DNA from: an uncultured Pseudomonadales bacterium
GTDB lineage: Bacteria > Patescibacteriota > Microgenomatia > UBA1400 > PJMF01
Direction of reading: 5' to 3'
Assembly: GCA_964455555.1 (NCBI GenBank)
Contig: CAYVXV010000002.1
Coordinates: 67,677 to 131,676, forward strand
DNA length: 64,000 bases
Shown: piece after piece, positions 1 through 48,088 of the stretch
Position numbering within the stretch: the stretch's first letter is position 1
Layout: each line of letters opens with the position of its first letter
The notes under the pieces: model-generated
Seen by the model: only the letters and a program-made list of their open reading frames with translations
Databases searched by the model: none
Told to the model about the DNA's origin: nothing
Translations under genes and position numbers: made by a program

Positions 1-804
1 GCAAAAAGTGATTCGTCTTACAACTTTGCTCTACTCAAAGACCTAGTTGCGATGGTTTTGAATAAAATTGCTAACTCAATCTTTCCACAATTGCCATTAT
101 TAAGCCTAGTTATTGTTTTATCTACATTTTACGTTATCGCTAAAAGAGCTAGGAGCGAAGTTGTATTGTTTCTAACCACTATATTAACAGCTCCTTTTTG
201 GTTGCTGGCAATTCAGCCAAGAGATACCTACTACACCCTGTTTGGCTTAGGGATGGTGATTTACATAGCTTTTGTTATCAGTTTAACTTTCTTAAAGAAG
301 AGCTGGAGAATTATACTTAGCGCTGCTTTTCTAGCAATCTTTGCTGCTTCAAACATTATCCAACTAAATGCTTACAGAAAGGACAATTTGCATTCCTTTG
401 CTATTCAAGCGGATACGATGCTAAGAGACCAATTGGAGTTGCTAGATAAAACATATGAATTAGCCAATGGCCAGCCTTTTACAATTTCTAGTTTTACCAA
501 TCCATACCTTTACAATACGACTTGGTCATTTCTTTACGGTTGGTATGGCAAAAACAACTATGGATACACCCCAAAGTTTGTGGGATCTGATCAGTCAGGT
601 ATCTATGGAGGTGAATTGCTTGAGGCTGCCGGCAACACTGGTGCTATTCACTTTTCTATTATTGAACCAAGCGCCGGAATTGCCGATGTATTTTTGACTG
701 ATTTTATTAGTTCTCAAGAGGAGTTGTCGGGGCAGGCTAAAGACAGCTTCGTGTTTGGCGGCATTACCCTAGTATATAGAGATAATTCGGAACCTGAAGA
801 CTAA
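1..804 (+). CDS. 3' part of a polytopic membrane protein; the reading frame is open from the window start, so the gene begins upstream. Possibly another GT-C-like protein, with TM helices then a soluble C-terminal domain.
   Basis: Frame 1 has no stop between nt 1 and 804. Several hydrophobic helices are followed by a hydrophilic C-terminal domain, as in the neighbouring GT-C proteins. Confidence 0.45.
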   Translation, partial: AKSDSSYNFALLKDLVAMVLNKIANSIFPQLPLLSLVIVLSTFYVIAKRARSEVVLFLTTILTAPFWLLAIQPRDTYYTLFGLGMVIYIAFVISLTFLKKSWRIILSAAFLAIFAASNIIQLNAYRKDNLHSFAIQADTMLRDQLELLDKTYELANGQPFTISSFTNPYLYNTTWSFLYGWYGKNNYGYTPKFVGSDQSGIYGGELLEAAGNTGAIHFSIIEPSAGIADVFLTDFISSQEELSGQAKDSFVFGGITLVYRDNSEPED

Positions 805-2510
805 TCTTTGCAGACTCTGTTTTCCATATAAAGCGCTGCATCATATGCATAAACATATGTATGGACATCGTTCGTTGCCTTGCCCTGATAAAGAATTTTT
901 GCTCCATCTATTGATTCATTTGTCACATAGACAGAGGGTAAGCCTGCTATTATACCCTTGCAGCCTTGGTTTTCTATTGAGGTTTTATAGGCAGTGATTT
1001 GATCGAGTTCGACGGTATGTCTAAAATTTGCACCATCGGCAGAATCCAAGACAGCCAATTCTTGATATAATTCAGGATCCATATCGGTGTAAAAAGCATA
1101 AAACATCAGCGGGTCGGAATAAAATGGTTTAAGATTTACAAGCGTCTCCTCAGGTAGCGTCTGAAGATACTGATGAAGCTCGGGCAAGTAGGATTGATAC
1201 CGGTACTCGTTTTGAACAACATGAACACCAAAATACTCTGTGAAATAGATGAAAGAGTAACCGATGACAAACAAACTGATTGCTCCATAAAAGAGGTTTT
1301 TGTGGAGTGACTTATCAAGATATGTGCTCACAACTCTAATACCATAAATTATCGTTAGAAGTACAAAAGGAAAGAAGGCGGAAATTCGCACCTTTTGAGG
1401 TTCGCCAACAAGTGCAGCTGGTATTGGAGCGAGAAGAAGGCCGGCGATGATAACGGATTTTGCCGTCAGTGAAAGATTTTTATCTTTACGAAGTATTAGC
1501 GCTGCTAGTCCTAAAATAAAGAAGGGATATAGGACAGGGAAGAATTGCCCAAATCCGTTCACAGTCAAAAAGTCGTTGTCTGTCTCACCAATGCTGACTA
1601 AAAAATCCGGTGAAAAGCTCATCAAATACCTCTTGGATAGCTCTCTAAATATATGAACCGGCTTGTTAGCTGCGAGATAACACACTGAAGCAGGAAACTG
1701 CATGCTGCAGAAGGCTCTCTTTTCATCAATAACCAGAGAAACAGCAGGATCTGATGTAATGCCAACCTGGTCAAACCGAGTATTATTTACACCTACAATA
1801 TTTGGACTAAACAGAGGAAGTACTGTTATGGCAAAGGCTGCAAAAAATATAAGATTGGTTTTTTTTAATTTTGCCCTAAGATACAAGGTTGCTGCGACAG
1901 CTAAAATAATTACGATAGTAATCGGACGATAGGCTATGTAGCTGTACCAGGTTAAGCCAAAGGATATTCCAGCAAGAATCCTCCAGATAGGGCGATCACT
2001 CTTTAACATTTTGAAAATAAGTGCTAATCCCAAGGTAAAGAAAAGAAGTGCGAGATTGGATTCAAACCCAAAGCGGCTTAGAAAAAAAGGCCAGGGGCTT
2101 ACAGCTGTAATAAAAGCGCCTAAAAGTGCTAGTTTGCGGCCGAATTCAAGTTCTAGAAACAACCAATAAACAGCAATTATAAGCAGTGTTCCGGCTATTA
2201 AGGAAGGGATACGGATAGCTAGCAAAGAAAGCCCAAAAACTGCTACAGAAGGCATATCCAGGTAGGCCATAGCGGGCAGCTTCTCATCACCAAAACCTTC
2301 AAAAACTAGTGGCCACTTGTTGCCATGTTCATCAGCCCCTGTTTCAAGCAAAGACTTTGCCAGATAACCAAAGTGCAGCTCATCTATTAAAGCCCCCTTT
2401 GGTGCTGAATCTATTTTCCAAGCCCTAAGCAAAAAACCGAGCAAAACTATTAATAATATTGCTAAAACTGGTATATATCTTTTAAGTCGGGAGAAAATAT
2501 TTGAAAGCAT
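801..2510 (-). CDS. GT-C fold membrane glycosyltransferase, GT39/GT83 (PMT/ArnT)-like
   Basis: The N-terminus has TM1 followed by ...SAPKGALIDELHFGY..., the acidic DE motif typical of GT-C first extracytoplasmic loops. About 11 further TM helices and a C-terminal soluble domain. Confidence 0.7.
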   Translation of the reverse strand: MLSNIFSRLKRYIPVLAILLIVLLGFLLRAWKIDSAPKGALIDELHFGYLAKSLLETGADEHGNKWPLVFEGFGDEKLPAMAYLDMPSVAVFGLSLLAIRIPSLIAGTLLIIAVYWLFLELEFGRKLALLGAFITAVSPWPFFLSRFGFESNLALLFFTLGLALIFKMLKSDRPIWRILAGISFGLTWYSYIAYRPITIVIILAVAATLYLRAKLKKTNLIFFAAFAITVLPLFSPNIVGVNNTRFDQVGITSDPAVSLVIDEKRAFCSMQFPASVCYLAANKPVHIFRELSKRYLMSFSPDFLVSIGETDNDFLTVNGFGQFFPVLYPFFILGLAALILRKDKNLSLTAKSVIIAGLLLAPIPAALVGEPQKVRISAFFPFVLLTIIYGIRVVSTYLDKSLHKNLFYGAISLFVIGYSFIYFTEYFGVHVVQNEYRYQSYLPELHQYLQTLPEETLVNLKPFYSDPLMFYAFYTDMDPELYQELAVLDSADGANFRHTVELDQITAYKTSIENQGCKGIIAGLPSVYVTNESIDGAKILYQGKATNDVHTYVYAYDAALYMENRVCKD

Positions 2511-2524
2511 TTTTAAATTATAAC

Positions 2525-4348
2525 TTACTTTGTAAAGAAGGTTTGGCAGAATTGGACATCTGAGAGTTTTTCCACAGACAATCTATTTTCTTTTAAATTA
2601 GAATATTCAGGTAGATCAAGTCCAGAGCAGAATCGGTCATTAAATATCCTGAAACGAGTTCCGCTATCCACCAGTGATTTTATTTCTACAACAGAACCAT
2701 TAAATTCCGGAGTGTCACAGGGCAGATTGAAAAAATCGATAGCTACGATTGTGTCATCCCTGATATCTCCCCATTCCTTTGGGCATGATTCGATAATTCT
2801 GATTCTGCCATTATCTATCAGCCTATCTCTGGATTTAGCAGCCTGATTCATAGCTTCTTGGCTGTCAACTTTTACTAGCTGATTATATGTTTGAATATAA
2901 TCAAAGGTAGAATCTGTTCTATCTGTAACTAGTATAAACGGCCGGTCACTCTCGCGAAGCACGTAGTTGGCCAGCACTCGTTCTGAAAATCCGGGATGGA
3001 CTGTTTGAGTAATAGGATATCTATAAAAATAGATATAGAATAAGGGTGCAGTCAGGATAGTATAAACTGCCAATACTAATAGCCCATACTTCATGCCTAA
3101 TTTCTTGAGTACGTAGCCCAGTGCCACTCCTATCATTAACACAAGGCCAAGAAAAGAAAAAGCTCCTCTAAAGGTAATCCATACTTCCCCATTTCTAATC
3201 ACGTTTGTTACTGTGCCAGCGAGGGTTATACCGATAATGAAAAGAGCGCCTACCCTATATTTGGCACTTTGGGTGGCAACGAAAGCAAAGAATGAAAAAA
3301 TCACAAAAATATCAACCCAGTGAAAAAATCCATGATCGACAACAGAGAAGGTATCTATTCTAGCATTTCCGCTGAGGAACAACCTCTCAGGATTAAACGA
3401 CTTAAGCAGCCTCTCTACAATTATTTCTGAATATGCAGTAACTTTATTGCTGAAAACCTGATTTAAAGGCGAGTCGAAAGACAATCTTCTTTTTTCATCC
3501 ACTGTTCTCTCTATAACATCCTGACCGACAATTGTAATCTCATTTGACCGTACGACGGCCGTGATAGAGTTTAACCGATACATGTAGGCTGCTGACAACA
3601 ATGCAGCTAAAAGCACAATAATAAGAGATGGAACATTTGCTTTTAAAGAGGTTAGGAATTTTTGAACGACTGATTGGGTATTTATAATTCTAACATCATT
3701 AAAATAATGATTAAGAAAAATTGCTAAGAAAACAACAGTTGCGAGTGGTAAGAGTATCGGCTTGTGGCCTTGATACTGCATGAACCCCCAAAAGAAAGGT
3801 AAAAAAGCCAAGAGTTTCTTATAACCTTTTAAATGAAGCATTAATGTAATGCCAAGCAGATAGAAAAACACACTGAAAAGAGAATCAAAAGCAGTCCTGG
3901 AAAACTGAAAGATCCAAGGATTTAGTGTGGCGGCCAGGCCAACAGTTAATAAATACTCTTTTTTCTTGAAAAAATAAAAGGCGATTAGTGCCATTAAAAC
4001 CGGCACCAAACTACCAAGTATGACTGGAACAATCTTGTGAGCCAACACTGGTTGGTTGGGAAATAACAATAATCCGGGCACCAATGTGGTACTGGTTAAT
4101 TCGGTGTACATTCCGTCTGAAGGTGCGAAATACCAAGGGCGCCAATTGCCCGCAAGATTAGTTCCGTACTCTAGAATATGCTGAGCCTCGGCTGCATAGA
4201 TAATTTCATCATAGGTAGCTCCCGCTGGTATGGAATCGATTTTGTACCACTTTAAGGTCAAGTTGACCAAGAAAATGATTAGTACCAGAGTTAGTAACTT
4301 GTGTTCTCGCAGCCATTTGTTCATAACACTATCTAATAACTTAACCAA
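2525..4348 (-). CDS. GT-C fold membrane glycosyltransferase, GT39/GT83-like
   Basis: TM1 then ...PAGATYDEIIYA... (DE motif). Polytopic, about 600 aa, with a C-terminal soluble domain. The alternative Met at 4324 would remove the 16-nt overlap with the upstream gene. Confidence 0.65.
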   Translation of the reverse strand: MVKLLDSVMNKWLREHKLLTLVLIIFLVNLTLKWYKIDSIPAGATYDEIIYAAEAQHILEYGTNLAGNWRPWYFAPSDGMYTELTSTTLVPGLLLFPNQPVLAHKIVPVILGSLVPVLMALIAFYFFKKKEYLLTVGLAATLNPWIFQFSRTAFDSLFSVFFYLLGITLMLHLKGYKKLLAFLPFFWGFMQYQGHKPILLPLATVVFLAIFLNHYFNDVRIINTQSVVQKFLTSLKANVPSLIIVLLAALLSAAYMYRLNSITAVVRSNEITIVGQDVIERTVDEKRRLSFDSPLNQVFSNKVTAYSEIIVERLLKSFNPERLFLSGNARIDTFSVVDHGFFHWVDIFVIFSFFAFVATQSAKYRVGALFIIGITLAGTVTNVIRNGEVWITFRGAFSFLGLVLMIGVALGYVLKKLGMKYGLLVLAVYTILTAPLFYIYFYRYPITQTVHPGFSERVLANYVLRESDRPFILVTDRTDSTFDYIQTYNQLVKVDSQEAMNQAAKSRDRLIDNGRIRIIESCPKEWGDIRDDTIVAIDFFNLPCDTPEFNGSVVEIKSLVDSGTRFRIFNDRFCSGLDLPEYSNLKENRLSVEKLSDVQFCQTFFTK

Positions 4349-5772
4349 TATACTTTCCAGGGAGAACTTGGAATCTCATATAACTCTCTAAGTTTTGCCT
4401 CCTTAAATGCCTGCATAGAAAATGATTGATCATCTCTTACAGTATCATAATCACTGGTTGAGACAACAAATAAATGCTCGGAGACATCATATTCACTCGG
4501 TGCCCTCAAACCTGCCCCATTCATCCTTACAACGTCACGGTAGGTTTCTGCCAGCGGACCACGGTCTGGGCTAGAGAGCGCGGCTACATTGGCATTATTT
4601 AGTTGATTTGTCTTAATAGTCTGCTCAATGTAATCGGCCGCCTTGGTAAATGAATAAAGGTCGGGATGAATTTTAGTGACGGTGAGCTGCCCCCAAATAC
4701 TCAACAAAGACCCCAGCACTAGTAGGGCAAGCACTGTGCTTGCTATCAGCTGAGCAATTTTCTCTTTTCTTGAAAAGACCAACCAGACCAATAAAAAGCC
4801 TAATGCAGGATAAACATATCGGTCTTCAAAGTCAGTAAAAAAAATTCCACCAGTTAATAAGGTTATTACAGGTGTTAGCCAAACAAGGTGCTTATAAGAT
4901 CTGTGTTTGATATCTAAGGCTGCAAGTAGGATAACTGCTGCTCCAACGAGATATTGCAGCGGTTTCTGGATAACAATCGTTTGAATGAATACAACAGCGT
5001 TTCTGTAAAGGTTGGGAAATATGTCTGCCAGCGATAGGTCCGATTCAACATGAGGCGTATTTCCTCCTAGTAAATATCTGGTTATAAATAATCCGGGGGG
5101 ATGACGCAGATCAAAAAGAAGAAAAGGCAAAAATGGCAGAGAATACCCCAGGAGTAATAAAAGCGCTTGTGTGAGGTTTTTAGATTTATATTCCAAAAAG
5201 GCAATAATCAACACAAAAGGCGTGGTCGCTAAGAATGCTAAATAATGATGATGAAAAAGCAGACCTAGAAAAATACCAGTTAAAAGTAACCCCCATCCCT
5301 TAAGTTGACTTCGATAAAAAAATGATAATAATCCAAGCGAGGCCCAAAGCATAACAAAATGAGGGTTCCACGCCCATCTACTCATTTCAACCAACGGATA
5401 CCATAAGATGATTAGTACTGCCGCCAAAAATGTTTGTTTGGGGTTAATTTTATTTGCTAAAATCAATAGTAAGAAAGCTGTAATTATTCCCCAAAAGGCA
5501 GTGCCATAAACAGGGCCCATGGGGGTAAAATTCACGGCTGCTGCAAAGGGCATCACCATGTAATAGGTAAGAGAACTGAAGACCTTATCTCCTTCGCTGG
5601 AAATAGGCCCGACTAAAGAAATCTTGCGTTCTGAGAAATACTGCTCCATTCTTGCTAGGTCGCTTGATTCGTCTCTGGTAAAGCGTGCAGTGTGGTCCAG
5701 GTTGTAAAGTCTAGTAATCAACACTAAAACTACAAACAACGTGAGACAGAAGATATTTGTTTTAGACAACAT
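4333..5772 (-). CDS. GT-C fold membrane glycosyltransferase, ArnT/PMT-like
   Basis: TM1 then ...LDHTARFTRDESSD... (acidic motif); polytopic membrane protein. Confidence 0.6.
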   Translation of the reverse strand: MLSKTNIFCLTLFVVLVLITRLYNLDHTARFTRDESSDLARMEQYFSERKISLVGPISSEGDKVFSSLTYYMVMPFAAAVNFTPMGPVYGTAFWGIITAFLLLILANKINPKQTFLAAVLIILWYPLVEMSRWAWNPHFVMLWASLGLLSFFYRSQLKGWGLLLTGIFLGLLFHHHYLAFLATTPFVLIIAFLEYKSKNLTQALLLLLGYSLPFLPFLLFDLRHPPGLFITRYLLGGNTPHVESDLSLADIFPNLYRNAVVFIQTIVIQKPLQYLVGAAVILLAALDIKHRSYKHLVWLTPVITLLTGGIFFTDFEDRYVYPALGFLLVWLVFSRKEKIAQLIASTVLALLVLGSLLSIWGQLTVTKIHPDLYSFTKAADYIEQTIKTNQLNNANVAALSSPDRGPLAETYRDVVRMNGAGLRAPSEYDVSEHLFVVSTSDYDTVRDDQSFSMQAFKEAKLRELYEIPSSPWKVYWLSY

Positions 5773-5823
5773 AGCAAAATTATTTTACAGCATTTTCTAG
5801 TTGGCCGGATAGGCTTTATTTAT

Positions 5824-7482
5824 CTAGTTCTTGAGCAACACAAATCCTGGTGTTTCTCCATCATCAAAATATGTTTGCTCAACTACCGTAAGATTTTTTG
5901 GCCTTTCCTCACGGCAATCTGCCGGAGCGACATATAGGGTTGATTCAGTATAGTTCGGCAAGAGACACCGCTCTTGATTAAAGTTGAACTTGCCAATAGA
6001 GTATTCTGCTTGATATCTGGCCAGTGGCTTATTTTGAACCTCTTGGATGCTTATAAGACCTACTTGCCACAGGTATATATACATTTCCCTTAAATCACTG
6101 GTAACCACAGCGCGCTCGTAATCCGCTTGATACTCTGCTATAACGGGAGCCACAATCTCATAGTTTCTGCTTCTGGTTGTAGAATTCAGCTTTGGCATAA
6201 CTACAAAAAACTGCTGAGAAAAGTAACCTATACTCCAGGTGTATCCAAATATTAGGGCTGCAACCGCTCCAAAGAGCAAATACTTATTAGATTTTTTTAT
6301 CAGTTCTAATAACCTCTGTAGTCCCAAAGTAACAAAAATTATCATTGGAATAATCAAAGTGAATGACCTAATGCTACTCGGAATCTCCTCATTAGTCATA
6401 GCAGCAGGAATCGGCGATAATAAAATCAAAAACCCACAGAGAATAGCTAGACCTCTATAGCTTCTTTTGAAAACTAGTTGATAAATACCAAGTGGAATAA
6501 CTGCTAATTCAATAAGATAGAACAAACCATGATAAGGTACAGCGAATCTTTTTGTAGCTCCTCCTAGTGTAAAGAAGAAATTCAGGTCAAAATGAGCCAA
6601 ATAGTTTCTAGCAAAATATTGCAGGTACATTACCGGCTTGTTATAAAAACTTCGCAGTAACAGCAACGGTGTTTCACCCGTACTTTTTGTGGTCATCTCG
6701 TGAATCAGGGCTTTGGGTAAGTCATCACTTATCAGGCCAATAGCTGAAAATCTAACCATAGCCCCACCAGCTGTTAACGCAAATAAAAGCGTTGTTGTCC
6801 CGAAAATAACGAGATGACGCCTTATCTGCTGCGATTCTTTATACCTGGAAATAGCAAGACAAAAGTTGAAAAAATAAAAACCCATCAAAACTATTTTTGC
6901 CGCGTGATAGCTATACATAGCAAGTCCGGCAGTCAGTGAAAAGAGCAAAAGATTCTTAATAGTGATCTTTTTTGACTCTATAAGATGTTTAAAGGCGATT
7001 AAATTTCCAAGAATAAAAAATAAGCTTAGTATCACCTCTTGAGTCGCTCTCGAATTCATGATGTGCCAAGGCGAAATGGCAAATAGCAGCATGCCCAGCA
7101 AGGCCAACCAACGCTTCCCTGTGTACTTATGAAGGAACAAATAAAAGAGTGCTATTGAACCTGTTCCAATTAAAACAGAGGGAAGCCTTGAAGTTGCTGT
7201 GCTCATGCCGAACAAAGCGAAAGAAACAGCTTGCAAATATGAGTAAAGAGCAGGTTTTCCATCTATTAACGAATGCAGATAAAGAGGAAATCGTCTGCCG
7301 TCTTCATCCATGCCTGTTTCAAGAATTGCAGCACTATTGATATAAAATGAGGCCTCATCAGATTGCAGGCCTCGGGGAATCGTTTCCAGGTTAACGACCC
7401 TTATTAGAAAGGCAAAAACAAGGATTGAGCCAAATGCTAGTTTAAATAATAAATTATCGCTATCTTTCAATAATCTTTTCAT
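5824..7482 (-). CDS. GT-C fold membrane glycosyltransferase, GT39/GT83 (ArnT/PMT)-like
   Basis: ...ETIPRGLQSDEASFY... immediately after TM1, then ...GMDEDGRRFP...; about 12 TM helices. Confidence 0.7.
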   Translation of the reverse strand: MKRLLKDSDNLLFKLAFGSILVFAFLIRVVNLETIPRGLQSDEASFYINSAAILETGMDEDGRRFPLYLHSLIDGKPALYSYLQAVSFALFGMSTATSRLPSVLIGTGSIALFYLFLHKYTGKRWLALLGMLLFAISPWHIMNSRATQEVILSLFFILGNLIAFKHLIESKKITIKNLLLFSLTAGLAMYSYHAAKIVLMGFYFFNFCLAISRYKESQQIRRHLVIFGTTTLLFALTAGGAMVRFSAIGLISDDLPKALIHEMTTKSTGETPLLLLRSFYNKPVMYLQYFARNYLAHFDLNFFFTLGGATKRFAVPYHGLFYLIELAVIPLGIYQLVFKRSYRGLAILCGFLILLSPIPAAMTNEEIPSSIRSFTLIIPMIIFVTLGLQRLLELIKKSNKYLLFGAVAALIFGYTWSIGYFSQQFFVVMPKLNSTTRSRNYEIVAPVIAEYQADYERAVVTSDLREMYIYLWQVGLISIQEVQNKPLARYQAEYSIGKFNFNQERCLLPNYTESTLYVAPADCREERPKNLTVVEQTYFDDGETPGFVLLKN

Positions 7483-7484
7483 TA

Positions 7485-9416
7485 TTATTCCTTAAATCTG
7501 TATAAGTTAATTCTATCAGCACGTTCGATAAATTTAATCTGTGGAGCGTCCAATTCTTTTTCGCAGATTATGTAGTCAATATTTTTATCTCCTCTAAAGC
7601 CCCGGGCATCTCCAAGTTTTTTTATTTCCTCTTCCAACCTCCTGTTTCTGTCTTTTATGTCCAAGCCTAAGATTTCAATTTGAACATCATTTGCTAGAAC
7701 TACTTTGGCACCTGTAATTCCCACAACAAGGGAGGTTCTAAAATATCTATTGTCGGCTGGACATATAGCAACCTTGTCTTCTGGCTTAATGATGCCAAGC
7801 ATAGCCAACTCGTTTGCCGATATATACTCTGATTTATCTATTTTTTCATAAGTTGTTTTGATATAGGCAGGCAGGGTAGCAATTAACAAAAGTCCTATTA
7901 TCAGAATTATCCAGGTTCGATCCCAAATGTTTTTATCTTTAAATATTTTATGAATCCCAGTCATAACAGCTGCGGCGAAGATATTTGCAAAAAATAAGGC
8001 ATAATACCAAAATTGAATCGTATTCCACGGAATCCCTTTTTGAATAAACAATAAAGGAAACAGAGAAGAACCAATAAAACCAATAATTACGAAATAATAA
8101 ACAATATTGAACTTGAGACGTTTTAAAATTAGAAATACCGGCAGCAAAAACATTATTGCCCTAGTACCTAAATTTCCAGAATAGAATATTAATAGCTCTT
8201 TGGCTCGAATATAGAGCAGTTGACCCAAATAACCCTTGTCTCGATAATGATCCTTCAGAAATTTCCAGCGGATGTTGTTTACCCGATCCGGAGATTCAAT
8301 CATCGTGTCAAGGTACCAAAGAGGCTTATAACTCAGCATGCCGGTCTTAAAGCCAGTTATTAACCATATGAATGGTGCTGAAATCAACAATAACACAGCA
8401 CCATAAATAAAAACTCTCAGGTTCTTTTTTAAGACTAGCTCTGCCAATAAGTATGCACCATAAAGTAGTCCCAAAACAACAAAGCTATAACTCTTAAAAC
8501 CCAGGCTTGAGCTAAGAATAAGAATGATTAACAAATGAACATAAAGAGCTTTTTGCTGGTTTTTTAAGCCGAAGGCCTTATGCAGCAAAATAAGAATTAG
8601 AGCTACCAAAGACAATGAATAGATCATTTGGGGATTTACCATCATGGCAAAAGTCTGGCTGACCCAAAAACTAGATTCTCCCCAAGTATTTCCTCGAATA
8701 AAAAAAGGAATTAAATAAGCAAAGCTACCGCCAAAAAAGGTAAAGAAAATCAGGTAAGCACCCATAACTTTCGATTTAAAAGCCTGTCCGAGTGCTGTTA
8801 GGCTTCCAGCCAAAAGAGCGGTTAATATCAAAGGAAAAAACTGAAAATAAAGCCTGAATATATCTAGTTTAAATGTACTGTGAAGTGAGGCAATCAACAG
8901 GTCGTAGAAATAGTGGTAATTAGTGACGGTCAAAGAATAGTCGGAAGGGTGCTCAGGAGGGATAGATACGGTGAGTTTTTTTATCAGCGCTATGTGCCAA
9001 ATACTATCATGCAGCTGTCCAGCCTGGACAGTAATGCCTCCCCCAACAGGTAGCCAAGAGAAAGCAATAGAAAAGTACAAACTCAGAGTGGCAAATATAG
9101 CAAAAATAGTAAAATATTTATTCCTGGAGGCCTGGAAAATTAGTGACTTGAGTAACAGAATACTATTTTTAAACTCAATTAACCCTAGAGATACCATCAA
9201 TGCTGAAAAGTAATAGATGCTAGTTCCAATAAGGTGTCCGCCAAAAAATAAAACTGCCGCAGTAACTGCAAAACCGGTTATTACACTCAAGGTTAGTTTC
9301 TCTAAATTGCTTAGTTTAAGGGGCAGATTCTTAATAAACAAAAGACCGCTTGGAACAAAATGAAGATAAAGTACAATTGGTGTGATTAATAATAGTAGCA
9401 GTTGCATTGCAGCCAT
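7485..9416 (-). CDS. Large polytopic membrane protein with about 14 or more TM helices and a roughly 100-aa C-terminal soluble domain; candidate GT-C-like enzyme, function unknown
   Basis: 643-aa ORF, hydrophobic throughout, no recognisable catalytic motif. First gene of the minus-strand operon that ends at 801. Confidence 0.5.
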   Translation of the reverse strand: MAAMQLLLLLITPIVLYLHFVPSGLLFIKNLPLKLSNLEKLTLSVITGFAVTAAVLFFGGHLIGTSIYYFSALMVSLGLIEFKNSILLLKSLIFQASRNKYFTIFAIFATLSLYFSIAFSWLPVGGGITVQAGQLHDSIWHIALIKKLTVSIPPEHPSDYSLTVTNYHYFYDLLIASLHSTFKLDIFRLYFQFFPLILTALLAGSLTALGQAFKSKVMGAYLIFFTFFGGSFAYLIPFFIRGNTWGESSFWVSQTFAMMVNPQMIYSLSLVALILILLHKAFGLKNQQKALYVHLLIILILSSSLGFKSYSFVVLGLLYGAYLLAELVLKKNLRVFIYGAVLLLISAPFIWLITGFKTGMLSYKPLWYLDTMIESPDRVNNIRWKFLKDHYRDKGYLGQLLYIRAKELLIFYSGNLGTRAIMFLLPVFLILKRLKFNIVYYFVIIGFIGSSLFPLLFIQKGIPWNTIQFWYYALFFANIFAAAVMTGIHKIFKDKNIWDRTWIILIIGLLLIATLPAYIKTTYEKIDKSEYISANELAMLGIIKPEDKVAICPADNRYFRTSLVVGITGAKVVLANDVQIEILGLDIKDRNRRLEEEIKKLGDARGFRGDKNIDYIICEKELDAPQIKFIERADRINLYRFKE

Positions 9417-9476
9417 GGATTGTTTTGCAGTATAAATTAAGTATATTATAGATGCACCGCAGTTTGGCTGTACACC

Positions 9477-11132
9477 ATGAGTAACTCAGAATATTGGTTT
9501 TTTCGCTTTCTCTACAGTAAAAGGTATCTGATTACCGCTATCAGTATAGTATTTATTGCTGCACTTATCAGGTTTTATAAGCTTGGCGAGATTCCTCATG
9601 GCTTAACCTGGGATGAGACGGCCATTGGCTACAATGGCTATGCTATTCTTACGACCCGCCGGGATGAGTGGCTCAATTTCCTGCCTGTTTCCTTCAAATC
9701 CTTTGGCGATTTTAAAGCTCCTATGGCTATCTACCTAAATGGCCCGTTTACCGCAGTGGCAGGATTAACGCCTTTCGGTGTCCGCTTGCCGTTTGCTTTA
9801 TCCGGAGTAATGGCGGTGGTTGGCCTCATGCTCCTTATCAAGGAGTTGTGGAGCCATGATAAACATGCCAAATTTTTTGCCTTGGCAGCTGGGGCGATCT
9901 TAACTTTTTCTCCCTGGCACATACACTTTACCCGCACAGGCTTTGAATCAGGTCTGATGCTAACGATGGTGATATTTGGGCTGCTATTTTTAAGGCTTGG
10001 CCTTACCTCCCGTATACCGGGTAGATCCTTGCTTTTTACAGGATCGGCTTTTATTCTTTTTGCCTTTAGCTTCTATACTTATCACAGCGCAAAGGTTTCC
10101 GTACCGCTTTTGGTACCTGTTTTCCTTCTTTTTCATTGGAGATATTTAAAGGCTCACAAACTGCAATTAGCCTTCGGAATAATAGCAGGGTTACTGCTGA
10201 TGGTGCCTTTAATAAAAGACACTTTTTGGGGCGAAGGATTGGAAAGAGCCGGCGTGACAGTGTTTGCCAGGTCGGAATCTCTTACTGAAGCCATTCTTCT
10301 GACAGGTAAACAATTTCTGATTCATTTAAGCCCACGCTTTTTATTATTTGGTGAATCAACTACGATGAGGCATGGCGACGGCACCTGGGGTGTGCTATTT
10401 CTTACCACTGCATTGGGAGCTATAACAGGATTTATAGCTGCTATTAAAGGAGTTTTTAGAGCAAAAAGACACAAAAAGGCTATGAGTCAAAAAACAAAAC
10501 TTGGTATTCTTTTCTTGTTTTGGGTAGCCCTGGGCCTCCTGCCGGCAGCAATAGCAACTGAAATACCTCACAGCAACCGTAGCTTAATGGCATTGCCCGG
10601 CTTTATTGGGCTGGCAATGGTTGGCTTGGATTTTGCCGCATCAGTATTACGCCGTTCCAAACTTAATCAAACCTGGAATGGTAGTAAAGGAGAGAAAAAC
10701 CTACTAGTTAAAGCAGCTATCGGTTCAGCCGCCCTGTTTCACTTTGTGTTTTTCTTTGCTTACGCCAATCATTATCTTAATGTTTTTGCAGCTGAATCAG
10801 CAGGCGCTTTTCAGGATGGTTATCTGGAAACTCTAGAATTGGTTAAAAGCTATGAGAAAGAAGTGAGCTCTATCATCATTTCCTCTAAATATGGCCAGCC
10901 ATACATCTACACTTTGTTCGCCAAGCAGGTTAGCCCGATTGCCTACAATGGCGGTGTCCTGGTTAGTTATCTTTTTCCGGATTCAGTTTCCATTAGCGAT
11001 TTAAACAGGGAGAATTCCTTAATAGTAGCCACTGCAGAAGATGAAGTTCCGTTTAAAAAAGCCGATCATCTTGTTTACGGCAGTGATGGAGAAATTCGGT
11101 TTGCCTTATTTATCACAGATAATGCAAACTAA
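9477..11132 (+). CDS. GT-C fold membrane glycosyltransferase, GT39/GT83-like
   Basis: TM1 then ...GEIPHGLTWDETAIGY... (DE motif); polytopic with a C-terminal soluble domain. Divergent from the 801-9416 operon. Confidence 0.65.
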   Translation: MSNSEYWFFRFLYSKRYLITAISIVFIAALIRFYKLGEIPHGLTWDETAIGYNGYAILTTRRDEWLNFLPVSFKSFGDFKAPMAIYLNGPFTAVAGLTPFGVRLPFALSGVMAVVGLMLLIKELWSHDKHAKFFALAAGAILTFSPWHIHFTRTGFESGLMLTMVIFGLLFLRLGLTSRIPGRSLLFTGSAFILFAFSFYTYHSAKVSVPLLVPVFLLFHWRYLKAHKLQLAFGIIAGLLLMVPLIKDTFWGEGLERAGVTVFARSESLTEAILLTGKQFLIHLSPRFLLFGESTTMRHGDGTWGVLFLTTALGAITGFIAAIKGVFRAKRHKKAMSQKTKLGILFLFWVALGLLPAAIATEIPHSNRSLMALPGFIGLAMVGLDFAASVLRRSKLNQTWNGSKGEKNLLVKAAIGSAALFHFVFFFAYANHYLNVFAAESAGAFQDGYLETLELVKSYEKEVSSIIISSKYGQPYIYTLFAKQVSPIAYNGGVLVSYLFPDSVSISDLNRENSLIVATAEDEVPFKKADHLVYGSDGEIRFALFITDNAN

Positions 11133-11842
11133 ACGAAATATTTTCCGCCAGAGAGTTTATAAATTCCCAGGTCTTTCAGGATGGTTAAGCCATATTTGCT
11201 GGAGCGCCAAAAATTAATCGATGAGGCTTCCTCAAAATACCTGACAGGCACAGCAATTTCGCCAATTTTGGCACCTTTAGCAATGGCTCCAAAAAGAATT
11301 TGAGAGTCAAAGGCAAAGTCATCAGTATAGCGGTGGAAGGGGAGCTTCTTTAGCAGTTTCTTGCTGAAAGCCCTAAAACCGGTGTGATACTCAGAAAGGT
11401 TCTGTCCCAAAAGAATGTTTTCCGTCATGGTCAAAAAGCGGTTGCCGGCATATTTATAACCGGGCATACCGCCGGCCAGCGCTTCTGCCCGTGTTCTGAT
11501 TCTGGAGCCGAGCATCACATCAAACCGCCCTTCAATAATTGGGCGCACCATTTCGCCAGTCAGAGTGCTGTCATACTGATAATCGGGGTGAATCATTACC
11601 ACTACGTCTGCACCTCTGGATAGAGCCAGGGTATAACAGGTTTTTTGATTGCCGCCATATCCTCGGTTTTGCGGGTGGGTAATCACCTCAAGGCCCAGCG
11701 CTTTGGCCACTTTCACCGTCTTATCTGAACTATTGTCGTCAACCAAAATAATCTCGTCCACCACTCCCTTGGGAATATCTTTGACTGTTTTCTTGAGTGT
11801 CTTGGCAGCGTTGTAGGCCGGCATAACGGCAATTACTTTCAT
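11129..11842 (-). CDS. GT2 polyprenyl-phosphate glycosyltransferase (DPM1/GtrB/ArnC-like), soluble type
   Basis: MKVIAVMPAYN...DEIILVDDNSSDKT...QNRGYGGN... gives the GT2 DxD/DD signature and the DPM1-like length of 237 aa. Its stop codon overlaps the stop of the convergent gene at 11132. Confidence 0.75.
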   Translation of the reverse strand: MKVIAVMPAYNAAKTLKKTVKDIPKGVVDEIILVDDNSSDKTVKVAKALGLEVITHPQNRGYGGNQKTCYTLALSRGADVVVMIHPDYQYDSTLTGEMVRPIIEGRFDVMLGSRIRTRAEALAGGMPGYKYAGNRFLTMTENILLGQNLSEYHTGFRAFSKKLLKKLPFHRYTDDFAFDSQILFGAIAKGAKIGEIAVPVRYFEEASSINFWRSSKYGLTILKDLGIYKLSGGKYFV

Positions 11843-13641
11843 GTTTTCCTTTTCTGATTAATAAAGATCAAGGCTGCGGCAGTTAAACCAACCATACTTG
11901 CCAGCCTACCTAGAATCACCGACAGAGTAGCTTGATGACTTATCTTGATATTATGTTCTCCTGGCTCTAGTTCAAATGCAATCAAACCGTCCTTTGAGGC
12001 AGTGTGTGCGACTTTAATATTATCTATATATACTGTCTGGCCCGGAAAATCAAACTGCTTGACTGTGACTTGAGCAATATCTTCTGCAAGAGCCATAAAT
12101 TCGATGCCGCTGTAGTCAACCTTGTACTCTCCAACAAGAATTTGTTCAGGAAAAACCAGTGGGAAATCCTGATCATCGAGTAGTTCACTACTGGCGTCTT
12201 TGGGGAGATACTCTGCAAAGGTATTAGTTGTTTTTTCTGCCCTGACTATGGCTTCCAGAGGAAAATTCAGGCGCATATTAACCCTGACATGATTGCGGTT
12301 CGTATACCAAGCAGCGGCAAAAGCCATGATTAGGAAAAAGACCCTGACTTCTAGTTTACGTGTTGTAGTCATGACTAACCCCAATGCCAACGAGCCAAAA
12401 AAGACGCTCAGCATCAGCAGCCTAAAAGGAAAATCCACGGTGGCCAGTTCGTTTGCCAACCGCCAAACAGGAGCTGAAATATCAAGCATGCCAATGATCG
12501 AAAGGCCGAAGAGACAGAGAACTCCTAAAGACAGCCACTTGTGCTCGTGAGTGCGCCTAAATATAACTGCCAATCCCAGCAGGCCGATACCCAGCCACTG
12601 GACAATCCCAACTTGAAAGGACAATTCTCCGTCTTTTGCATTTGTGGTGACCGGGCCATATCCCCAGGGGGAATATACCAATTGCTTAAAATTAACAAAA
12701 TACCGCTCAAACAGCTCACTATAACCGTTGCCGGCAGCTCTAGAACCGATTTCCGGCAAATAGCTTAACATCGGTAATAAATAGAATCCAGCCAATAAAC
12801 CGGCCAATACTGCCGACCCCAACAGATATAAAATATGCAGCTTTAAATCTTTTCCCCGGTTTTTAGCCAAGAGGACCAGCCCAAAGAGAGAAATAAAGGG
12901 AAGGATCATCACAAAAGTGATTAAATGGGAGAGCATAATTCCGGCAGCAGCTACCCCCGTTAAAACTACTCCCAAAACAGATTTCTCAGACAGTATCATC
13001 CAGAACCCTAAAAACAGGAGCGGCAGCAATGCCAAACTTAGGCTGGTGCCCACTGCGCCTGCCACCATGACGGCAAAAAACTGATAGGGTGCCCACATAT
13101 AGGCAATTGCTGCCAGAAACGCAGCCATCTTATCACGGGATATCCGGAAAACCAGCAGATACATTGCCAGCCCCGCTCCAATAAAGGACTTGATAAATAA
13201 GCCTTTCAGTATGAACTCTATTGAAAATCCTGCCGCTACAAACGGGGCGCTTAATATCCAAGGTAAATGATAGGAAAAGTAAAAAAGTGGATAGCCAATA
13301 CCTTCAGCAATTGGAAATATCCAGTTGGGCAAAAACATACCGGCTTTAAAGGCCTCTGAGTAGTGATAGAGCCTGGCAACCTGGTGCCAAATGTCATGGG
13401 CAGAAAACAAATCTGGCCCAAGAAGATCTTTCATGCCGAACAGCCCAGCCGCACATATTAAACCTATAACTGCTATGTGCCCGCACCAACCTTTTGTTGC
13501 AGACGAAATCTTCTCTGAAATATTAATCAATCCAGCCGTTTTGAACACAATCTTAATTAAATCATACTTGACCATGATATGATAGAGTTTATGATTTCTG
13601 TTGTCCTTGCTGTCCATAATGAGGAGAAAAACTTGCGCCAA
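11839..13641 (-). CDS. Polytopic membrane protein with a C-terminal beta-rich soluble domain (YfhO-like / GT-C-like candidate); start codon uncertain
   Basis: About 12 hydrophobic helices. The annotated 5' end (13641) overlaps the start of the divergent GT2 gene (13579). In-frame Met codons at 13617, 13575 or 13434, or a non-ATG start, are possible. Confidence 0.5.
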   Translation of the reverse strand: MAQVFLLIMDSKDNRNHKLYHIMVKYDLIKIVFKTAGLINISEKISSATKGWCGHIAVIGLICAAGLFGMKDLLGPDLFSAHDIWHQVARLYHYSEAFKAGMFLPNWIFPIAEGIGYPLFYFSYHLPWILSAPFVAAGFSIEFILKGLFIKSFIGAGLAMYLLVFRISRDKMAAFLAAIAYMWAPYQFFAVMVAGAVGTSLSLALLPLLFLGFWMILSEKSVLGVVLTGVAAAGIMLSHLITFVMILPFISLFGLVLLAKNRGKDLKLHILYLLGSAVLAGLLAGFYLLPMLSYLPEIGSRAAGNGYSELFERYFVNFKQLVYSPWGYGPVTTNAKDGELSFQVGIVQWLGIGLLGLAVIFRRTHEHKWLSLGVLCLFGLSIIGMLDISAPVWRLANELATVDFPFRLLMLSVFFGSLALGLVMTTTRKLEVRVFFLIMAFAAAWYTNRNHVRVNMRLNFPLEAIVRAEKTTNTFAEYLPKDASSELLDDQDFPLVFPEQILVGEYKVDYSGIEFMALAEDIAQVTVKQFDFPGQTVYIDNIKVAHTASKDGLIAFELEPGEHNIKISHQATLSVILGRLASMVGLTAAALIFINQKRKT

Positions 13642-15430: not shown

Positions 15431-15432
15431 TC

Positions 15433-16635
15433 ATGAAAAAAACCACAATCTGGATTTTGTCTGCTTTACTTTTCTGGTTTATTCTGCTCCAACTGACTGC
15501 TTTAAATGCCGGCCGGTTGGTGGCTTACGAACCTTCTTTTCCCTACGCTTACGACATCTTGGCCAAATTTAATTTACCTCAATGGTATTACTCCTGGGCT
15601 GGTTTTGATGGTGTCCACTATCTTACTATTGCCTTGAATGGTTATAAATATGCCGATTTAACTCAAGCCTTTTTTCCTCTGTTTCCTGGAATCTTGTCAG
15701 TTTTTGAGTCAATTGGCTTGAATCCGATTGCAGCAGGATTAATTTTAAACCTAACTTTACTGACTATGGCCTTGATACTGTTCTATAAATTGGTAAAACT
15801 TGACTTCAGTTATTCAGTAAGCAAAAAAGCTCTTTTGGCCTTGCTGTTGTTCCCAACCTCCTTCTTTTTCATCTCACTTTACACAGAGTCGCTGTTTCTG
15901 CTGACTGTAATCGGCGCCTTTCTGGCAGCCAGAAGGGGAAGATGGCTGCTGGCTGCTGGATTCACAATCTTGGCAACATCTTCAAGATTAGTCGGCATCA
16001 TGCTTGTACCTGCCCTGATAATGGAACTCTATTTACAGAAAAATAACCAAGTCTTTTTAGTCGACCTAATTAAAGACATCAGAAACAATAAGTTTGTAGA
16101 AACTTTTGTTTCAACGGCCAAAAACAATCTTAGGACAATTGCCCTGATTGGCGGTGGCTCTTTGGGGCTAATAATTTATATGAGTTTCCTATACAGAGAG
16201 TTTGGAGACCCGCTTTATTTTTATCACGTCCAATCAGAGTTCGGTGGAGGAAGGCAGGAAAACCTGATTATGTATCCTCAAGTTGTTTGGAGATATATTA
16301 ATATCCTCATCACAGCCCGCCCTTTTGACTGGAAATATTATTCTTATATCCTTGAAGCGATAGCCGGGGTAGGCGGCTTTTTTGGGCTAATGTATGCCCT
16401 TAAACATGTCCGGCTTTCATACGTTTTTTTCTCTCTGGGAATATTTATCATCCCCACCTTAACAGGAACCTTTTCCAGCCTGCCGCGCTATCTCTTGCCG
16501 GCTTTTGCCATATACATACTCTTGGCTAAGCTTCTTGAAACCCATACAATAAGCAGGTATACCTATTTCGGCATCTCAATGCTGCTTTTAGTCATTAATA
16601 CGATGCTCTTTATCCAAGGATATTGGGTGTCATAA
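15433..16635 (+). CDS. Polytopic membrane protein, PIG-V/GT76-like (Mannosyl_trans2-like) GT-C candidate
   Basis: ...WAGFDGVHYLTIALNGY... resembles the W-D-x-x-HY-x-IA-x-GY signature of PIG-V-type mannosyltransferases; about 10 TM helices. Confidence 0.4.
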   Translation: MKKTTIWILSALLFWFILLQLTALNAGRLVAYEPSFPYAYDILAKFNLPQWYYSWAGFDGVHYLTIALNGYKYADLTQAFFPLFPGILSVFESIGLNPIAAGLILNLTLLTMALILFYKLVKLDFSYSVSKKALLALLLFPTSFFFISLYTESLFLLTVIGAFLAARRGRWLLAAGFTILATSSRLVGIMLVPALIMELYLQKNNQVFLVDLIKDIRNNKFVETFVSTAKNNLRTIALIGGGSLGLIIYMSFLYREFGDPLYFYHVQSEFGGGRQENLIMYPQVVWRYINILITARPFDWKYYSYILEAIAGVGGFFGLMYALKHVRLSYVFFSLGIFIIPTLTGTFSSLPRYLLPAFAIYILLAKLLETHTISRYTYFGISMLLLVINTMLFIQGYWVS

Positions 16636-16644
16636 AAGGAAGAT

Positions 16645-19682: not shown

Positions 19683-20360
19683 ATGCCAAAAAAACTTGCG
19701 CCAACTACCTGGATAATTGTCCCTAGCCTCAATGAAGCCAAGGATCTTCCAACTGTACTCAAAGCTATTAAGAAATATACTAAAAACTTTATTGTCATCG
19801 ATGACGGCTCCTCTGATCAGTCAGCCGCAGTTGCCCGCCGCTATACCCCATATGTTTTCCGCCATGAAATTAACCTCGGCAAGGGAGCAGCATTAATGAC
19901 CGGCTGCCAGTATGCCTTTAATGATAAAAAAGCCCAAGCTGTTATTTTTATAGACAGTGACAATCAGCATAATCCGGATCATCTGGCTAGTTTTCAAAAG
20001 GAGCTTGGCGATGGCCATGATATTGTTTTCGGTGTCCGGGATTTTACCAAGGACATGCCTCTCATTAAGATTATGGCCAACCGCTTTTCCTCTTGGATGA
20101 TTTATGTGCTCTTTGGCAGTTATATTCCGGATATTCCCAGCGGCTACAAGGCTCTTTCTCGGAAAGGCTTTCAAAAGATAGCCTGGTCCAGCAGCGATTA
20201 TGCAGTTGAATTGGAAATTGCCGCCAGAGTGGCTAAGTACAAGCTTAATTTTGCCACCATTCCGATAGATACCATCTATCTTGATTATGAGCGGGGCATG
20301 ACAGTGCTTCATGTGATAAAAATGATTAGTAAGGTAATAAGCTGGAGGGTAAGCCTATGA
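19683..20360 (+). CDS. GT2 polyprenyl-phosphate glycosyltransferase (DPM1/GtrB-like)
   Basis: ...TWIIVPSLNEAKDL...FIVIDDGSSDQS...IFIDSDNQHNP... matches GT2 DPM1-like motifs. Confidence 0.75.
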   Translation: MPKKLAPTTWIIVPSLNEAKDLPTVLKAIKKYTKNFIVIDDGSSDQSAAVARRYTPYVFRHEINLGKGAALMTGCQYAFNDKKAQAVIFIDSDNQHNPDHLASFQKELGDGHDIVFGVRDFTKDMPLIKIMANRFSSWMIYVLFGSYIPDIPSGYKALSRKGFQKIAWSSSDYAVELEIAARVAKYKLNFATIPIDTIYLDYERGMTVLHVIKMISKVISWRVSL

Positions 20361-24600: not shown

Positions 24601-24601
24601 T

Positions 24602-26958: not shown

Positions 26959-26960
26959 GT

Positions 26961-32475: not shown

Positions 32476-32490
32476 ATTCTAATGGTTTTT

Positions 32491-34667: not shown

Positions 34668-34677
34668 AGAAATTATA

Positions 34678-40898: not shown

Positions 40899-41095
40899 TA
40901 GTGTAGCTTTGAGCTTCTTGAAGCCCCTTGGTTTTTATTGATTTGATATGCTTCGGGAATTGCCATCTTGTTCCTCGCCTGGTCTGCTACTTTTTGTGAC
41001 TAACAAGGCAAATTGTCTATGCCCACATAGATTAATTCTACATTATAATGGCTGAAAGCATCAAATACTTACAGTCTATACTGTTCAGGCACCTC

Positions 41096-48076: not shown

Positions 48077-48088
48077 TATGCTTTCTTT

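Follow-up and report, generated by a model that had tools for sequence, protein, structure and literature searches.

The 64 kb of bacterial DNA analysed here, called the window throughout, carries fourteen genes for GT-C-type glycosyltransferases, which fall into at least nine sequence families and nine of which lie within the first 16.6 kb. Genes are densely packed in the window, which has about 56 real open reading frames (ORFs), and its bacterial nature is evident from the ruvC, ruvA, ruvB and recO genes. Pfam scans, in which domains were listed at E <= 0.01, assigned nearly all of the remaining genes to glycan synthesis: nine Glycos_transf_1-type (GT4) enzymes, eight of them above the Pfam cut-off, six enzymes of glycosyltransferase family 2 (GT2), two Wzx-type flippases, a Wzy_C protein, a small phosphoglycosyl transferase, an FkbM-type methyltransferase and about 12 sugar-nucleotide enzymes, among them a ManC-type GDP-mannose pyrophosphorylase. 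Each gene is referred to below by its first coordinate.

Five of the GT-C genes lie head-to-tail on the minus strand at 801..9416 (ORFs 801-2510, 2525-4348, 4333-5772, 5824-7482 and 7485-9416, with spacings of +14, -16, +51 and +2 nt), an arrangement that a first-pass annotation had described as one operon of GT-C-like genes. The features of this operon are as follows.

801..2510, minus strand: GT-C of PMT_2/PMT type, 569 aa (PF13231 37.1 bits, PF02366 27.7 bits), DE motif at D43-E44; last gene of the operon
2525..4348, minus strand: GT-C paralogue, 607 aa, with a YDE motif; no Pfam match of its own, blastp 1e-15 to 801
4333..5772, minus strand: 479-aa GT-C-fold protein whose family has no Pfam model, with invariant D34-E35 in the motif FTxDESSDL; identified by profile and fold evidence
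5824..7482, minus strand: GT-C of PMT_2/PMT type, 552 aa, DE motif (PF13231 37.3 bits, PF02366 29.9 bits); blastp 3e-37 to 801
7485..9416, minus strand: 643-aa GT-C-fold protein whose family has no Pfam model; about four additional helices at the N terminus precede HDSxWHIALI (D137, W140, H141); first gene of the operon
9417..9476, no strand: divergent intergenic region of 60 bp between the operon and ORF 9477-11132, with a promoter-like site at 9474-9445 on the minus strand

The gathering cut-offs of the PMT_2 and PMT models are 26.1 and 22.7 bits, respectively, and both were exceeded by 801 and 5824. The 801 protein has an orthologue of 60% identity in the related locus L004, and the orthologues of 2525 are 45-50% identical to it, the one from Levybacteria carrying the domain PF19528 GT_STM0557_N. 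No match was obtained for 4333 or 7485 in Pfam and NCBIfam scans, and the GT-C models of Pfam matched none of the 34 members of the 4333 family and, weakly, one of the 30 members of the 7485 family. Family alignments were compared as profiles with hhalign, namely A1 (7485), A2 (4333, 34 sequences), A4 (26 sequences of PMT_2-type array members of the window and of related genomes), A5 (38300), A6 (24602) and A7 (the PTPS_related protein 11839). In the alignment of the 4333-family profile with the PMT_2-type paralogues of the window (96.7% probability, E 3.9e-10), the DE motifs fell in the same columns. The AlphaFold (AF2) model of 4333 had a pLDDT of 93.1, and the top 30 matches obtained with it by Foldseek in the PDB were all GT-C-fold proteins, at a TM-score of about 0.5, including ALG12, ArnT, OST/STT3, AglB, AftB, PglB, PimE, DPY19 and AftD. 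For the 7485 family, the comparison with the PMT_2-type paralogues was not significant (hhalign 15%), while that with PTPS_related reached a suggestive level (58%, E 1e-4) with HDxxWH in register. The confident AlphaFold models of both 4333 and 7485 matched GT-C enzymes only (ALG12, STT3, AftA, PglB, ArnT and PMT). The proteins 4333 and 7485 represent two GT-C families for which Pfam has no model. Taken together, Pfam, blastp, profile and fold evidence indicated that all five operon genes encode GT-C-fold proteins, thereby bearing out the proposed operon.

Nine further genes of GT-C type are located outside the operon.

1..804, plus strand: partial ORF cut off by the start of the window, with frame +1 open from base 1 to 804; it encodes ~268 aa of the C-terminal part of a GT-C-like membrane protein that is a distant relative of the 4333 family
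9477..11132, plus strand: PMT_2-like GT-C, 551 aa, DE motif; PF13231 25.8 bits against a cut-off of 26.1, blastp 6e-19 to 801
11839..13641, minus strand: PTPS_related/YfhO-like GT-C with an invariant D83; PF10131 34.6 bits (cut-off 26.4), weak YfhO match
15433..16635, plus strand: GT-C of PIG-V/Mannosyl_trans2 type, 400 aa; PF04188 34.5 bits (cut-off 22.4)
24602..25948, plus strand: GT-C, PMT_2-like by profile, 448 aa, WDA motif (D130) after about four N-terminal helices
38300..39898, plus strand: GT-C, 532 aa, invariant NLEPYPD (E43, D47) after the first transmembrane helix (TM1); hhalign against A4 98.3%, E 2.2e-14, over 374 columns
41048..42613, plus strand: GT-C of PMT_2 type, 521 aa, MDEA motif; PF13231 34.7 bits
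43685..45160, plus strand: GT-C of PMT_2 type, 491 aa, TE replacing DE; PF13231 35.9 bits, blastp 2e-102 to 41048 with 36% identity
53084..54568, plus strand: GT-C of PMT_2 type, 494 aa, WRQAD motif; PF13231 51.3 bits

The partial ORF at the start of the window had been counted with the operon. It is real and GT-C-like, but it is a plus-strand ORF that converges on the minus-strand operon and lies outside it; a partial ORF on the minus strand was ruled out by stops in all three minus frames of 1-900. Its product aligned to residues ~256-514 of ORFs of 490-530 aa in two related loci, L049 and L051, and these full-length ORFs matched the hidden Markov model (HMM) of the 4333 family at 5e-14 and 1e-8, respectively. 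The divergent sixth GT-C gene, 9477, was recovered as proposed on the near-cut-off PMT_2 score and the blastp link given above, and an orthologue of 56% identity occupies the same position in L001. Likewise, 41048, 43685 and 53084, which had been listed as further members, all exceeded the PMT_2 cut-off. Four ORFs had been named only as membrane candidates, and each of them proved to be a GT-C: 11839 as a PTPS_related protein, 15433 as a PIG-V protein with a syntenic orthologue in L001 (59% identity), and 24602 and 38300 by profile. PTPS_related and PIG-V are both counted in the GT-C/PMT clan. The families of 11839 and 24602 aligned with A4 at 96.6% (E 5.7e-10) and 96.8% (E 2.8e-10), respectively. 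PMT_2 was matched by 13 of the 29 aligned sequences of the 24602 family, which has 774 representative homologues, and a few homologues of 38300 carry PF13231 or PF03901. Thus, seven of the fourteen proteins reached the Pfam cut-offs of PMT_2, PTPS_related or PIG-V. The GT-C fold was recognised in 4333 by Foldseek and in the others by Pfam models of the GT-C clan or by profile comparison, and no protein fell into a non-glycosyltransferase family. At the level of fold, the window proteins belong to the GT-C superfamily.

A DE motif following TM1 had been credited to eight of these proteins. A strict DE was found in six (801, 2525, 4333, 5824, 9477 and 41048), whereas 43685 has TE and 53084 has QAD, the latter within the WRQAD that had indeed been pointed out. 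Seven residues are invariant in the 26 sequences of A4, namely D43, E44, P139, R146, Y191, G321 and R375. The other families aligned have invariant acidic residues in the corresponding loop as well: D34-E35 in A2, D137 in A1, D83 in A7, D130 in A6 and E43 together with D47 in A5. By hhalign, D83 of the PTPS_related family and D130 of the 24602 family share a column with the D of DE, and D137 of the 7485 family was put in the same column by a weaker alignment. The loop Asp was invariant across the 22-34 sequences aligned per family, and this residue would face the outer side of the membrane.

The genes that may supply these enzymes with donors, and those of the accompanying lipid-linked glycan pathway, are listed below.

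11129..11842, minus strand: soluble GT2 enzyme of polyprenyl-phosphate-sugar synthase type, 237 aa, no predicted transmembrane helix; PF00535
13579..14397, plus strand: GT2 enzyme, 272 aa; GT2 models match only the N-terminal ~100 residues and the top NCBIfam matches are not polyprenyl-phosphate synthases
19683..20360, plus strand: soluble GT2 enzyme of GacI/PpgS-like polyprenyl-phosphate-N-acetylhexosamine synthase type, 225 aa; PF00535 91.6 bits
20357..20698, plus strand: small DUF2304 membrane protein, 113 aa, GacJ/Rv3632-like partner; PF10066 64.5 bits (cut-off 25.5), its start overlapping the stop of the GT2 gene
34678..36237, minus strand: Wzx-type (MOP family) flippase; PF01943, PF13440 and MatE; candidate for undecaprenyl-pyrophosphate (Und-PP)-linked oligosaccharide or undecaprenyl-phosphate-linked sugar
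37030..38307, plus strand: second Wzx-type flippase; PF01943, its end overlapping the start of GT-C gene 38300
51390..53102, plus strand: membrane protein of the Wzy_C/O-antigen-ligase family (polymerase or ligase); PF04932 36.2 bits
59495..60598, plus strand: mannose-1-phosphate guanylyltransferase of ManC type; PF00483 143.8 bits, PF22640 70.5 bits
60646..61266, plus strand: small polyprenyl-phosphate glycosyl-1-phosphate transferase, initiating an Und-PP-linked glycan; PF02397 204.9 bits, NCBIfam EPS_sugtrans and WbaP

Three DPM1-like GT2 genes, one of them with a DUF2304-like partner, and a GDP-mannose pyrophosphorylase had been proposed as the source of lipid-linked donors. The partner and the pyrophosphorylase (59495) were both recovered. 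Two of the three candidate synthases stood: the top full-length NCBIfam matches of 11129 and 19683 were AglJ, PpgS, a haloarchaeal dolichyl-phosphate-hexose transferase, PgfS and ArnC. For 19683 the best was PpgS (2e-25, full length, below cut-off), and 11129 matched the catalytic domain of E. coli ArnC by blastp at 1e-7. The third, 13579, was rejected on its partial GT2 match and its non-synthase NCBIfam matches, and is probably an ordinary cytoplasmic Leloir-type transferase. The start of 11129 shares 4 nt with the end of GT-C gene 11839, which lies upstream on the same strand, and this GT-C/synthase pair is kept in the related loci L001 and L020. GacJ and Rv3632, the small membrane proteins that 20357 resembles, stimulate the synthases GacI and PpgS (bioRxiv 10.1101/180810).

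In Gram-positive bacteria, a cytoplasmic GT-A enzyme and a small membrane protein act together with a Wzx flippase and a GT-C of PMT_2 type in a multi-component system, exemplified by GacI/J/K/L (PMC8035078). What was observed here is the fold of the proteins, the relationships of their families, the conservation of acidic residues, the coupling of genes and their synteny. Reading synthase, flipping and transfer activities from these, we consider it reasonably likely that the window encodes an expanded, Gram-positive-style system of 'multi-component transmembrane glycosylation', where few lipid-linked donors feed many GT-Cs and surface glycans are the likely acceptors. The two soluble GT2 enzymes at the cytoplasmic face, 11129, translationally coupled to the YfhO/PTPS_related GT-C, and 19683, coupled to the GacJ-like DUF2304 membrane partner, would use a nucleotide sugar to charge polyprenyl (undecaprenyl) phosphate with its sugar. 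The lipid-linked monosaccharides would then be flipped across the membrane, possibly by one of the two Wzx-type proteins, which become the candidates for want of a GtrA-type one in the window. At the outer face, the fourteen GT-C-fold enzymes would transfer sugars from these donors to one or more surface glycopolymers, the repeat units of which would be built on polyprenyl pyrophosphate by the co-encoded phosphoglycosyl transferase, eight or more GT4 enzymes, four further GT2 enzymes, and Wzx and Wzy_C proteins, with many sugar-nucleotide enzymes in the same pathway. Each GT-C paralogue may add its sugar at a different position or linkage. The use of lipid-phosphate-linked donors by the GT-Cs is suggested by gene context, and the earlier proposal of an extracytoplasmic glycosylation dependent on such donors is likewise supported by profile, fold and gene context.

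Several observations weigh against this expanded multi-component system. No GT2 enzyme reached an NCBIfam equivalog cut-off, no GtrA-type flippase was matched in any scanned ORF of the window and no unannotated gap is large enough for one, and the role of the Wzx proteins may be confined to the Und-PP-linked pathway. HMM searches of PDB sequences with 801, A1, A4 and A5 gave nothing meaningful, so that structure comparison alone provided links to known structures. The alignment of E. coli K-12 ArnT with A4 was statistically weak (hhalign 25% probability, E 7.5e-4), although it did not lose the motif and placed PDETRY exactly on the DE column; with A2 it reached 2%. The 43685 protein lacks the Asp of DE, and may therefore be inactive or differently catalytic. 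Sequence does not reveal the donor sugars or the acceptors, the PMT matches of 801 and 5824 leave room for protein acceptors, and we know of no enzymatic or glycan data for any bacterium of the candidate phyla radiation (CPR), to which the source of the window belongs as described below.

The likeness of the window to the GacI/J/K/L system of the Streptococcus pyogenes Group A carbohydrate lies in a cytoplasmic GT2 enzyme devoid of transmembrane helices, a separate DUF2304 protein encoded directly downstream, flippase candidates of Wzx rather than GtrA type, PMT_2 GT-Cs and a cell-wall polysaccharide locus, and is thus one of gene set and family type. In contrast to the one GT-C per synthase of GacI/J/K/L, the window has about 14 GT-Cs of at least nine families for two synthases, no rhamnan genes were identified in it, and the host is a CPR bacterium. 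The second close comparison is with the CsbB/GtcA/YfhO and GtlA/GtlB systems of teichoic-acid glycosylation in Bacillus, Listeria and Staphylococcus, where csbB and yfhO are paired (PMC8035078). Similarly, GT2 gene 11129 and the YfhO-related GT-C gene 11839 are adjacent, co-directional and overlapping, and their pairing is kept in relatives. However, 11129 (237 aa, no predicted transmembrane helix) lacks the C-terminal membrane helices of CsbB and GtrB, and neither a GtrA/GtcA flippase nor teichoic-acid genes were noticed in the window. The window system would work like GacIJKL and CsbB/YfhO, and differs from them in scale and in the families used.

The two-step logic of a GT2 and a GT-C enzyme is shared with ArnC/ArnT (GT83): the DE motif aligned, weakly (25%), with PDETRY, ArnT was a top structural match and 11129 resembles ArnC. 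Unlike in that system, no ArnT or ArnC equivalog score was obtained, and no arnA, arnB, arnD, arnE, arnF or lipid A genes were seen in the window. In mycobacteria, a few polyprenyl-phosphate sugars feed many GT-Cs that build a complex glycan outside the membrane. The many GT-Cs and very few donors of the window resemble this arrangement, in which mycobacterial and corynebacterial PimE, AftA, AftB, AftD, EmbA-C and Pmt are fed by polyprenyl-phosphate-mannose and decaprenyl-phosphate-arabinose. AftA, AftB, AftD and PimE were among the structural matches of the window models, and the mycobacterial PpgS/Rv3632 pair is the counterpart of the window's GT2 and DUF2304 pair. The likeness does not extend to a demonstrable membership of the sequence families GT53, GT85, GT87 and GT89. 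Moreover, mycobacterial GT-C genes are scattered over a 4.4-Mb genome, whereas those of the window are packed in tens of kb of a genome that is probably about 1 Mb, as typical of CPR bacteria.

The GT-Cs had been described as GT39/GT83-like, which holds at the level of the GT-C superfamily. The PMT and PMT_2 matches of 801 and 5824 and the DE in the first loop recall the GT39 enzymes PMT/POMT and the actinobacterial Pmt. However, Pfam scans revealed no MIR domain and no PMT_4TMC domain in any paralogue, the proteins are shorter (480-640 aa), and the context is that of a polysaccharide locus. The PMT cut-off itself was reached by 801 and 5824, with the other twelve GT-Cs below it. NCBIfam gave no family membership for any of the GT-Cs and no ArnT model among the matches. 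Membership of GT39 sensu stricto is therefore not demonstrable by domain architecture, nor is that of GT83/ArnT, for want of an equivalog match and a strong alignment.

These matches bear on whether the acceptors are proteins. Some or most of the PMT_2/PMT-type enzymes might behave as the protein O-mannosyltransferases of actinobacteria or eukaryotes do and place mannose from polyprenyl-phosphate-mannose on Ser/Thr of proteins that are secreted, for instance pilins, S-layer proteins or lipoproteins, with a different set of proteins for each paralogue. Such protein O-glycosylation would agree with the scores of 801 and 5824 above the gathering cut-offs of PMT as well as PMT_2, with the invariance of a DE motif typical of PMTs, with the GDP-mannose pyrophosphorylase in the window and with the presence of Pmt2 and Pmt4 among the structural matches. 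The missing MIR and PMT_4TMC domains speak against it, as does the embedding of the genes in polysaccharide-type pathways (phosphoglycosyl transferase, Wzx, Wzy_C and GT4 enzymes), and no candidate gene for a Ser/Thr-rich target was noticed in the window. GacL, which modifies a glycan, is also a PMT_2 protein (PMC8035078), so that PMT_2 does not imply a protein acceptor. We regard protein O-glycosylation as the main purpose of these enzymes as rather unlikely, although for the PMT-scoring members it is a reading to be taken seriously. Within the preferred multi-component system with surface glycans as acceptors, the acceptors are no less likely to be glycans than proteins.

The named homologues of the 7485, 4333 and 38300 families belong to Levy-, Pace-, Woese-, Beckwith-, Davies-, Shapiro- or Amesbacteria or are labelled 'Patescibacteria group'. 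These lineages fall within the Microgenomates group of Patescibacteria, and the source of the window is an uncultivated CPR (Patescibacteria) bacterium of Microgenomates type. The closest matches of these three families were 46-63% identical, which suggests a fairly distinct member of the Microgenomates. Syntenic arrays were found in independent assemblies (loci L001, L003/L007, L004, L008, L009, L019, L020 and L025), the independent sources being Logan ERR10905742 and SRR25046493, ENA ERZ27293412 and several metagenome-assembled genomes (MAGs) in GenBank. L001 keeps an eight-gene module of the window, 7485-17583, which comprises an epimerase, a PIG-V-like protein, a GT4, a GT2, a PTPS_related protein, the 237-aa GT2, a PMT_2 protein and the 644-aa family. 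L004 has six consecutive GT-C genes (640, 483, 591, 591, 572 and 546 aa), a close mirror of the window operon. Loci of equal density occur in Levybacteria and in L008, L009 (ten GT-C ORFs in 19 kb), L019, L020 and L025. The same arrays with one-to-one orthologues in independent assemblies indicate that the array is typical of a CPR sublineage and not unique. The glycosylation system had earlier been described as unusually elaborate; within its own lineage, an array of this kind is not unusual. Literature searches on CPR/Patescibacteria together with GT-C, ArnT or mannosyltransferase revealed no description of such arrays.

Since the source is uncultivated and known only from a metagenome-derived NCBI contig of 164,957 bp, which encodes proteins 100% identical to those of three window ORFs, the concentration of GT-C genes might be thought to result from a chimeric contig or from collapsed repeats. 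The recurrence of the same gene order in independent assemblies of different samples effectively refutes this, the paralogues are only 23-36% identical, which is not expected of collapsed repeats, and the housekeeping genes ruvCAB and recO lie inside the same window. An assembly or binning artefact is therefore barely credible. The glycan genes are interleaved with housekeeping genes and do not form a detachable island: ruvC-ruvA-ruvB, at 47549-49677, is surrounded by glycosylation genes, and recO lies at 63407-63949.

Sequence divergence also bears on function. The array paralogues have their own orthologues elsewhere at 45-60% identity, whereas the four PMT_2-type paralogues of the window linked by blastp are mutually 23-29% identical, which indicates that the paralogy is ancient and maintained. 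The same contrast makes a distinct acceptor specificity for each paralogue plausible. Several paralogues could instead be pseudo-enzymes, scaffolds, polymerase- or ligase-like proteins or flippase-associated proteins, as proposed for archaeal Agl23, with far fewer than 14 reactions. This would be in keeping with the TE in place of DE in 43685, with the 'flippase activity-associated protein Agl23' as the top NCBIfam match of 801, 5824 and 53084, far below cut-off, and with the presence of two donor synthases only for 14 GT-Cs. However, the invariance of the loop Asp in every family aligned is hard to reconcile with loss of catalysis, and the full-length orthologue that each array member has elsewhere argues for selection on function. 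As in mycobacteria, few donors can serve many GT-Cs. We judge such mixed or non-catalytic roles to be quite improbable, and return to a system in which the fourteen GT-Cs would be transferases.

For this multi-component system, the conservation of the GT2 enzyme is informative. The 11129 protein is 88% identical to its counterpart in L001 (7556-8266) and 79% identical to that in L020 (1042-1746), each encoded right after the PTPS_related orthologue, whereas the adjacent PTPS_related GT-C is 51% (L001) and 40% (L020) identical and the neighbouring GT-Cs are 40-56% identical. Judged by these identities, the putative donor-making enzyme appears far more constrained than the transferases, which fits a fixed donor with diverging acceptor sites. 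In L008 (18863-21113), a 38300-like GT-C gene is directly followed by a 19683-like GT2 gene (36% identity to window 19683). This adjacency suggests that the 38300-like GT-C and the GacI-like GT2 work together, although they are 18 kb apart in the window.

CPR/Patescibacteria are cells with tiny genomes that rely on other cells. That 14 of about 56 window genes would encode glycosyltransferases of the outer face, in a layout kept across relatives, suggests a sugar coat under strong selection, with a probable role in attachment, host recognition or phage defence. More speculatively, CPR bacteria of the Microgenomates group may assemble most of a large and complex envelope glycan outside the membrane, like mycobacterial arabinogalactan or lipoarabinomannan, by a conserved array of at least nine GT-Cs, with one or two lipid-linked sugars of high conservation as donors and including the 480-aa 'FTxDESSDL' and 640-aa 'HDSxWH' families that lack a Pfam definition. 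We put this forward tentatively, as a doubtful idea with the odds clearly against it. If true, such an outside-built glycan would amount to an envelope architecture not recognised before, one that might be central to host attachment by these epibiotic or symbiotic cells. Of interest here are the two GT-C families without a Pfam model, with confident structure models and candidate catalytic residues, and the extreme density of GT-C genes in a presumably minimal genome, in an array that is typical of a CPR sublineage and unstudied. The two small putative donor synthases are directly assayable targets for sugar identity, and the array, in which many transferases would be fed by one donor, offers a natural setting for studying the evolution of GT-C acceptor specificity.

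Several neighbouring features were also recorded. No RNA gene was found by tRNA and Rfam scans of the window. The promoter-like site at 9474-9445 is a consensus match only, and such sites were no commoner across the region than in shuffled sequence; terminator-like sites were at most modestly commoner (24 against 16.8 ± 4.2 in shuffles). The ORFs 11839-13641 (minus strand, TTG start) and 13579-14397 (plus strand) overlap by 63 nt at their 5' ends. An orthologue of 11839 has 570 aa and the ORF here 600 aa, so that translation probably begins at an internal Met some 25-30 codons downstream of the annotated TTG. Directly upstream of GT-C gene 24602, 23602-24600 (plus strand) encodes a membrane protein of 332 aa with at least about four helices and no Pfam match. 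A soluble protein of 510 aa (18058-19590, minus strand) with no Pfam match and no predicted helix is encoded between an epimerase gene and the GacI/GacJ-like pair, and a membrane protein of 156 aa (56632-57102, plus strand) has two helices, a Lys/Arg/Ala-rich tail and no Pfam match. The gene 61364-63352 (plus strand), directly after that of the phosphoglycosyl transferase, encodes a single-pass membrane protein of 662 aa with a DUF4012 domain, and this position suggests a part in the same glycan pathway.

Five genes in 26961-30929 and 33612-34667 encode a UDP-sugar 6-dehydrogenase, a GFO/IDH/MocA oxidoreductase, a hexapeptide acyltransferase, a DegT aminotransferase and a UDP-GlcNAc 2-epimerase, a set that we take to resemble the WbpA/B/D/E/I pathway to UDP-2,3-diacetamido-2,3-dideoxy-mannuronic acid. 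The G+C fraction along the window is 0.39-0.46, except for 0.32-0.38 at ~24-36 kb. With this lower value at ~24000-36000 against about 0.44 elsewhere, the segment may represent a glycan cassette that is variable or was acquired horizontally.

Many public MAG records with these CPR-specific genes (loci L005-L056) are titled 'uncultured Pseudomonadales' or 'Gammaproteobacteria bacterium', the record of L045 is titled 'Candidatus Methanoperedens sp.', and one 'Pseudomonadales' isolate bears the name HK-STAS-PATE-15. Such titles on records with CPR-specific genes look like cases of mislabelling or mis-binning.

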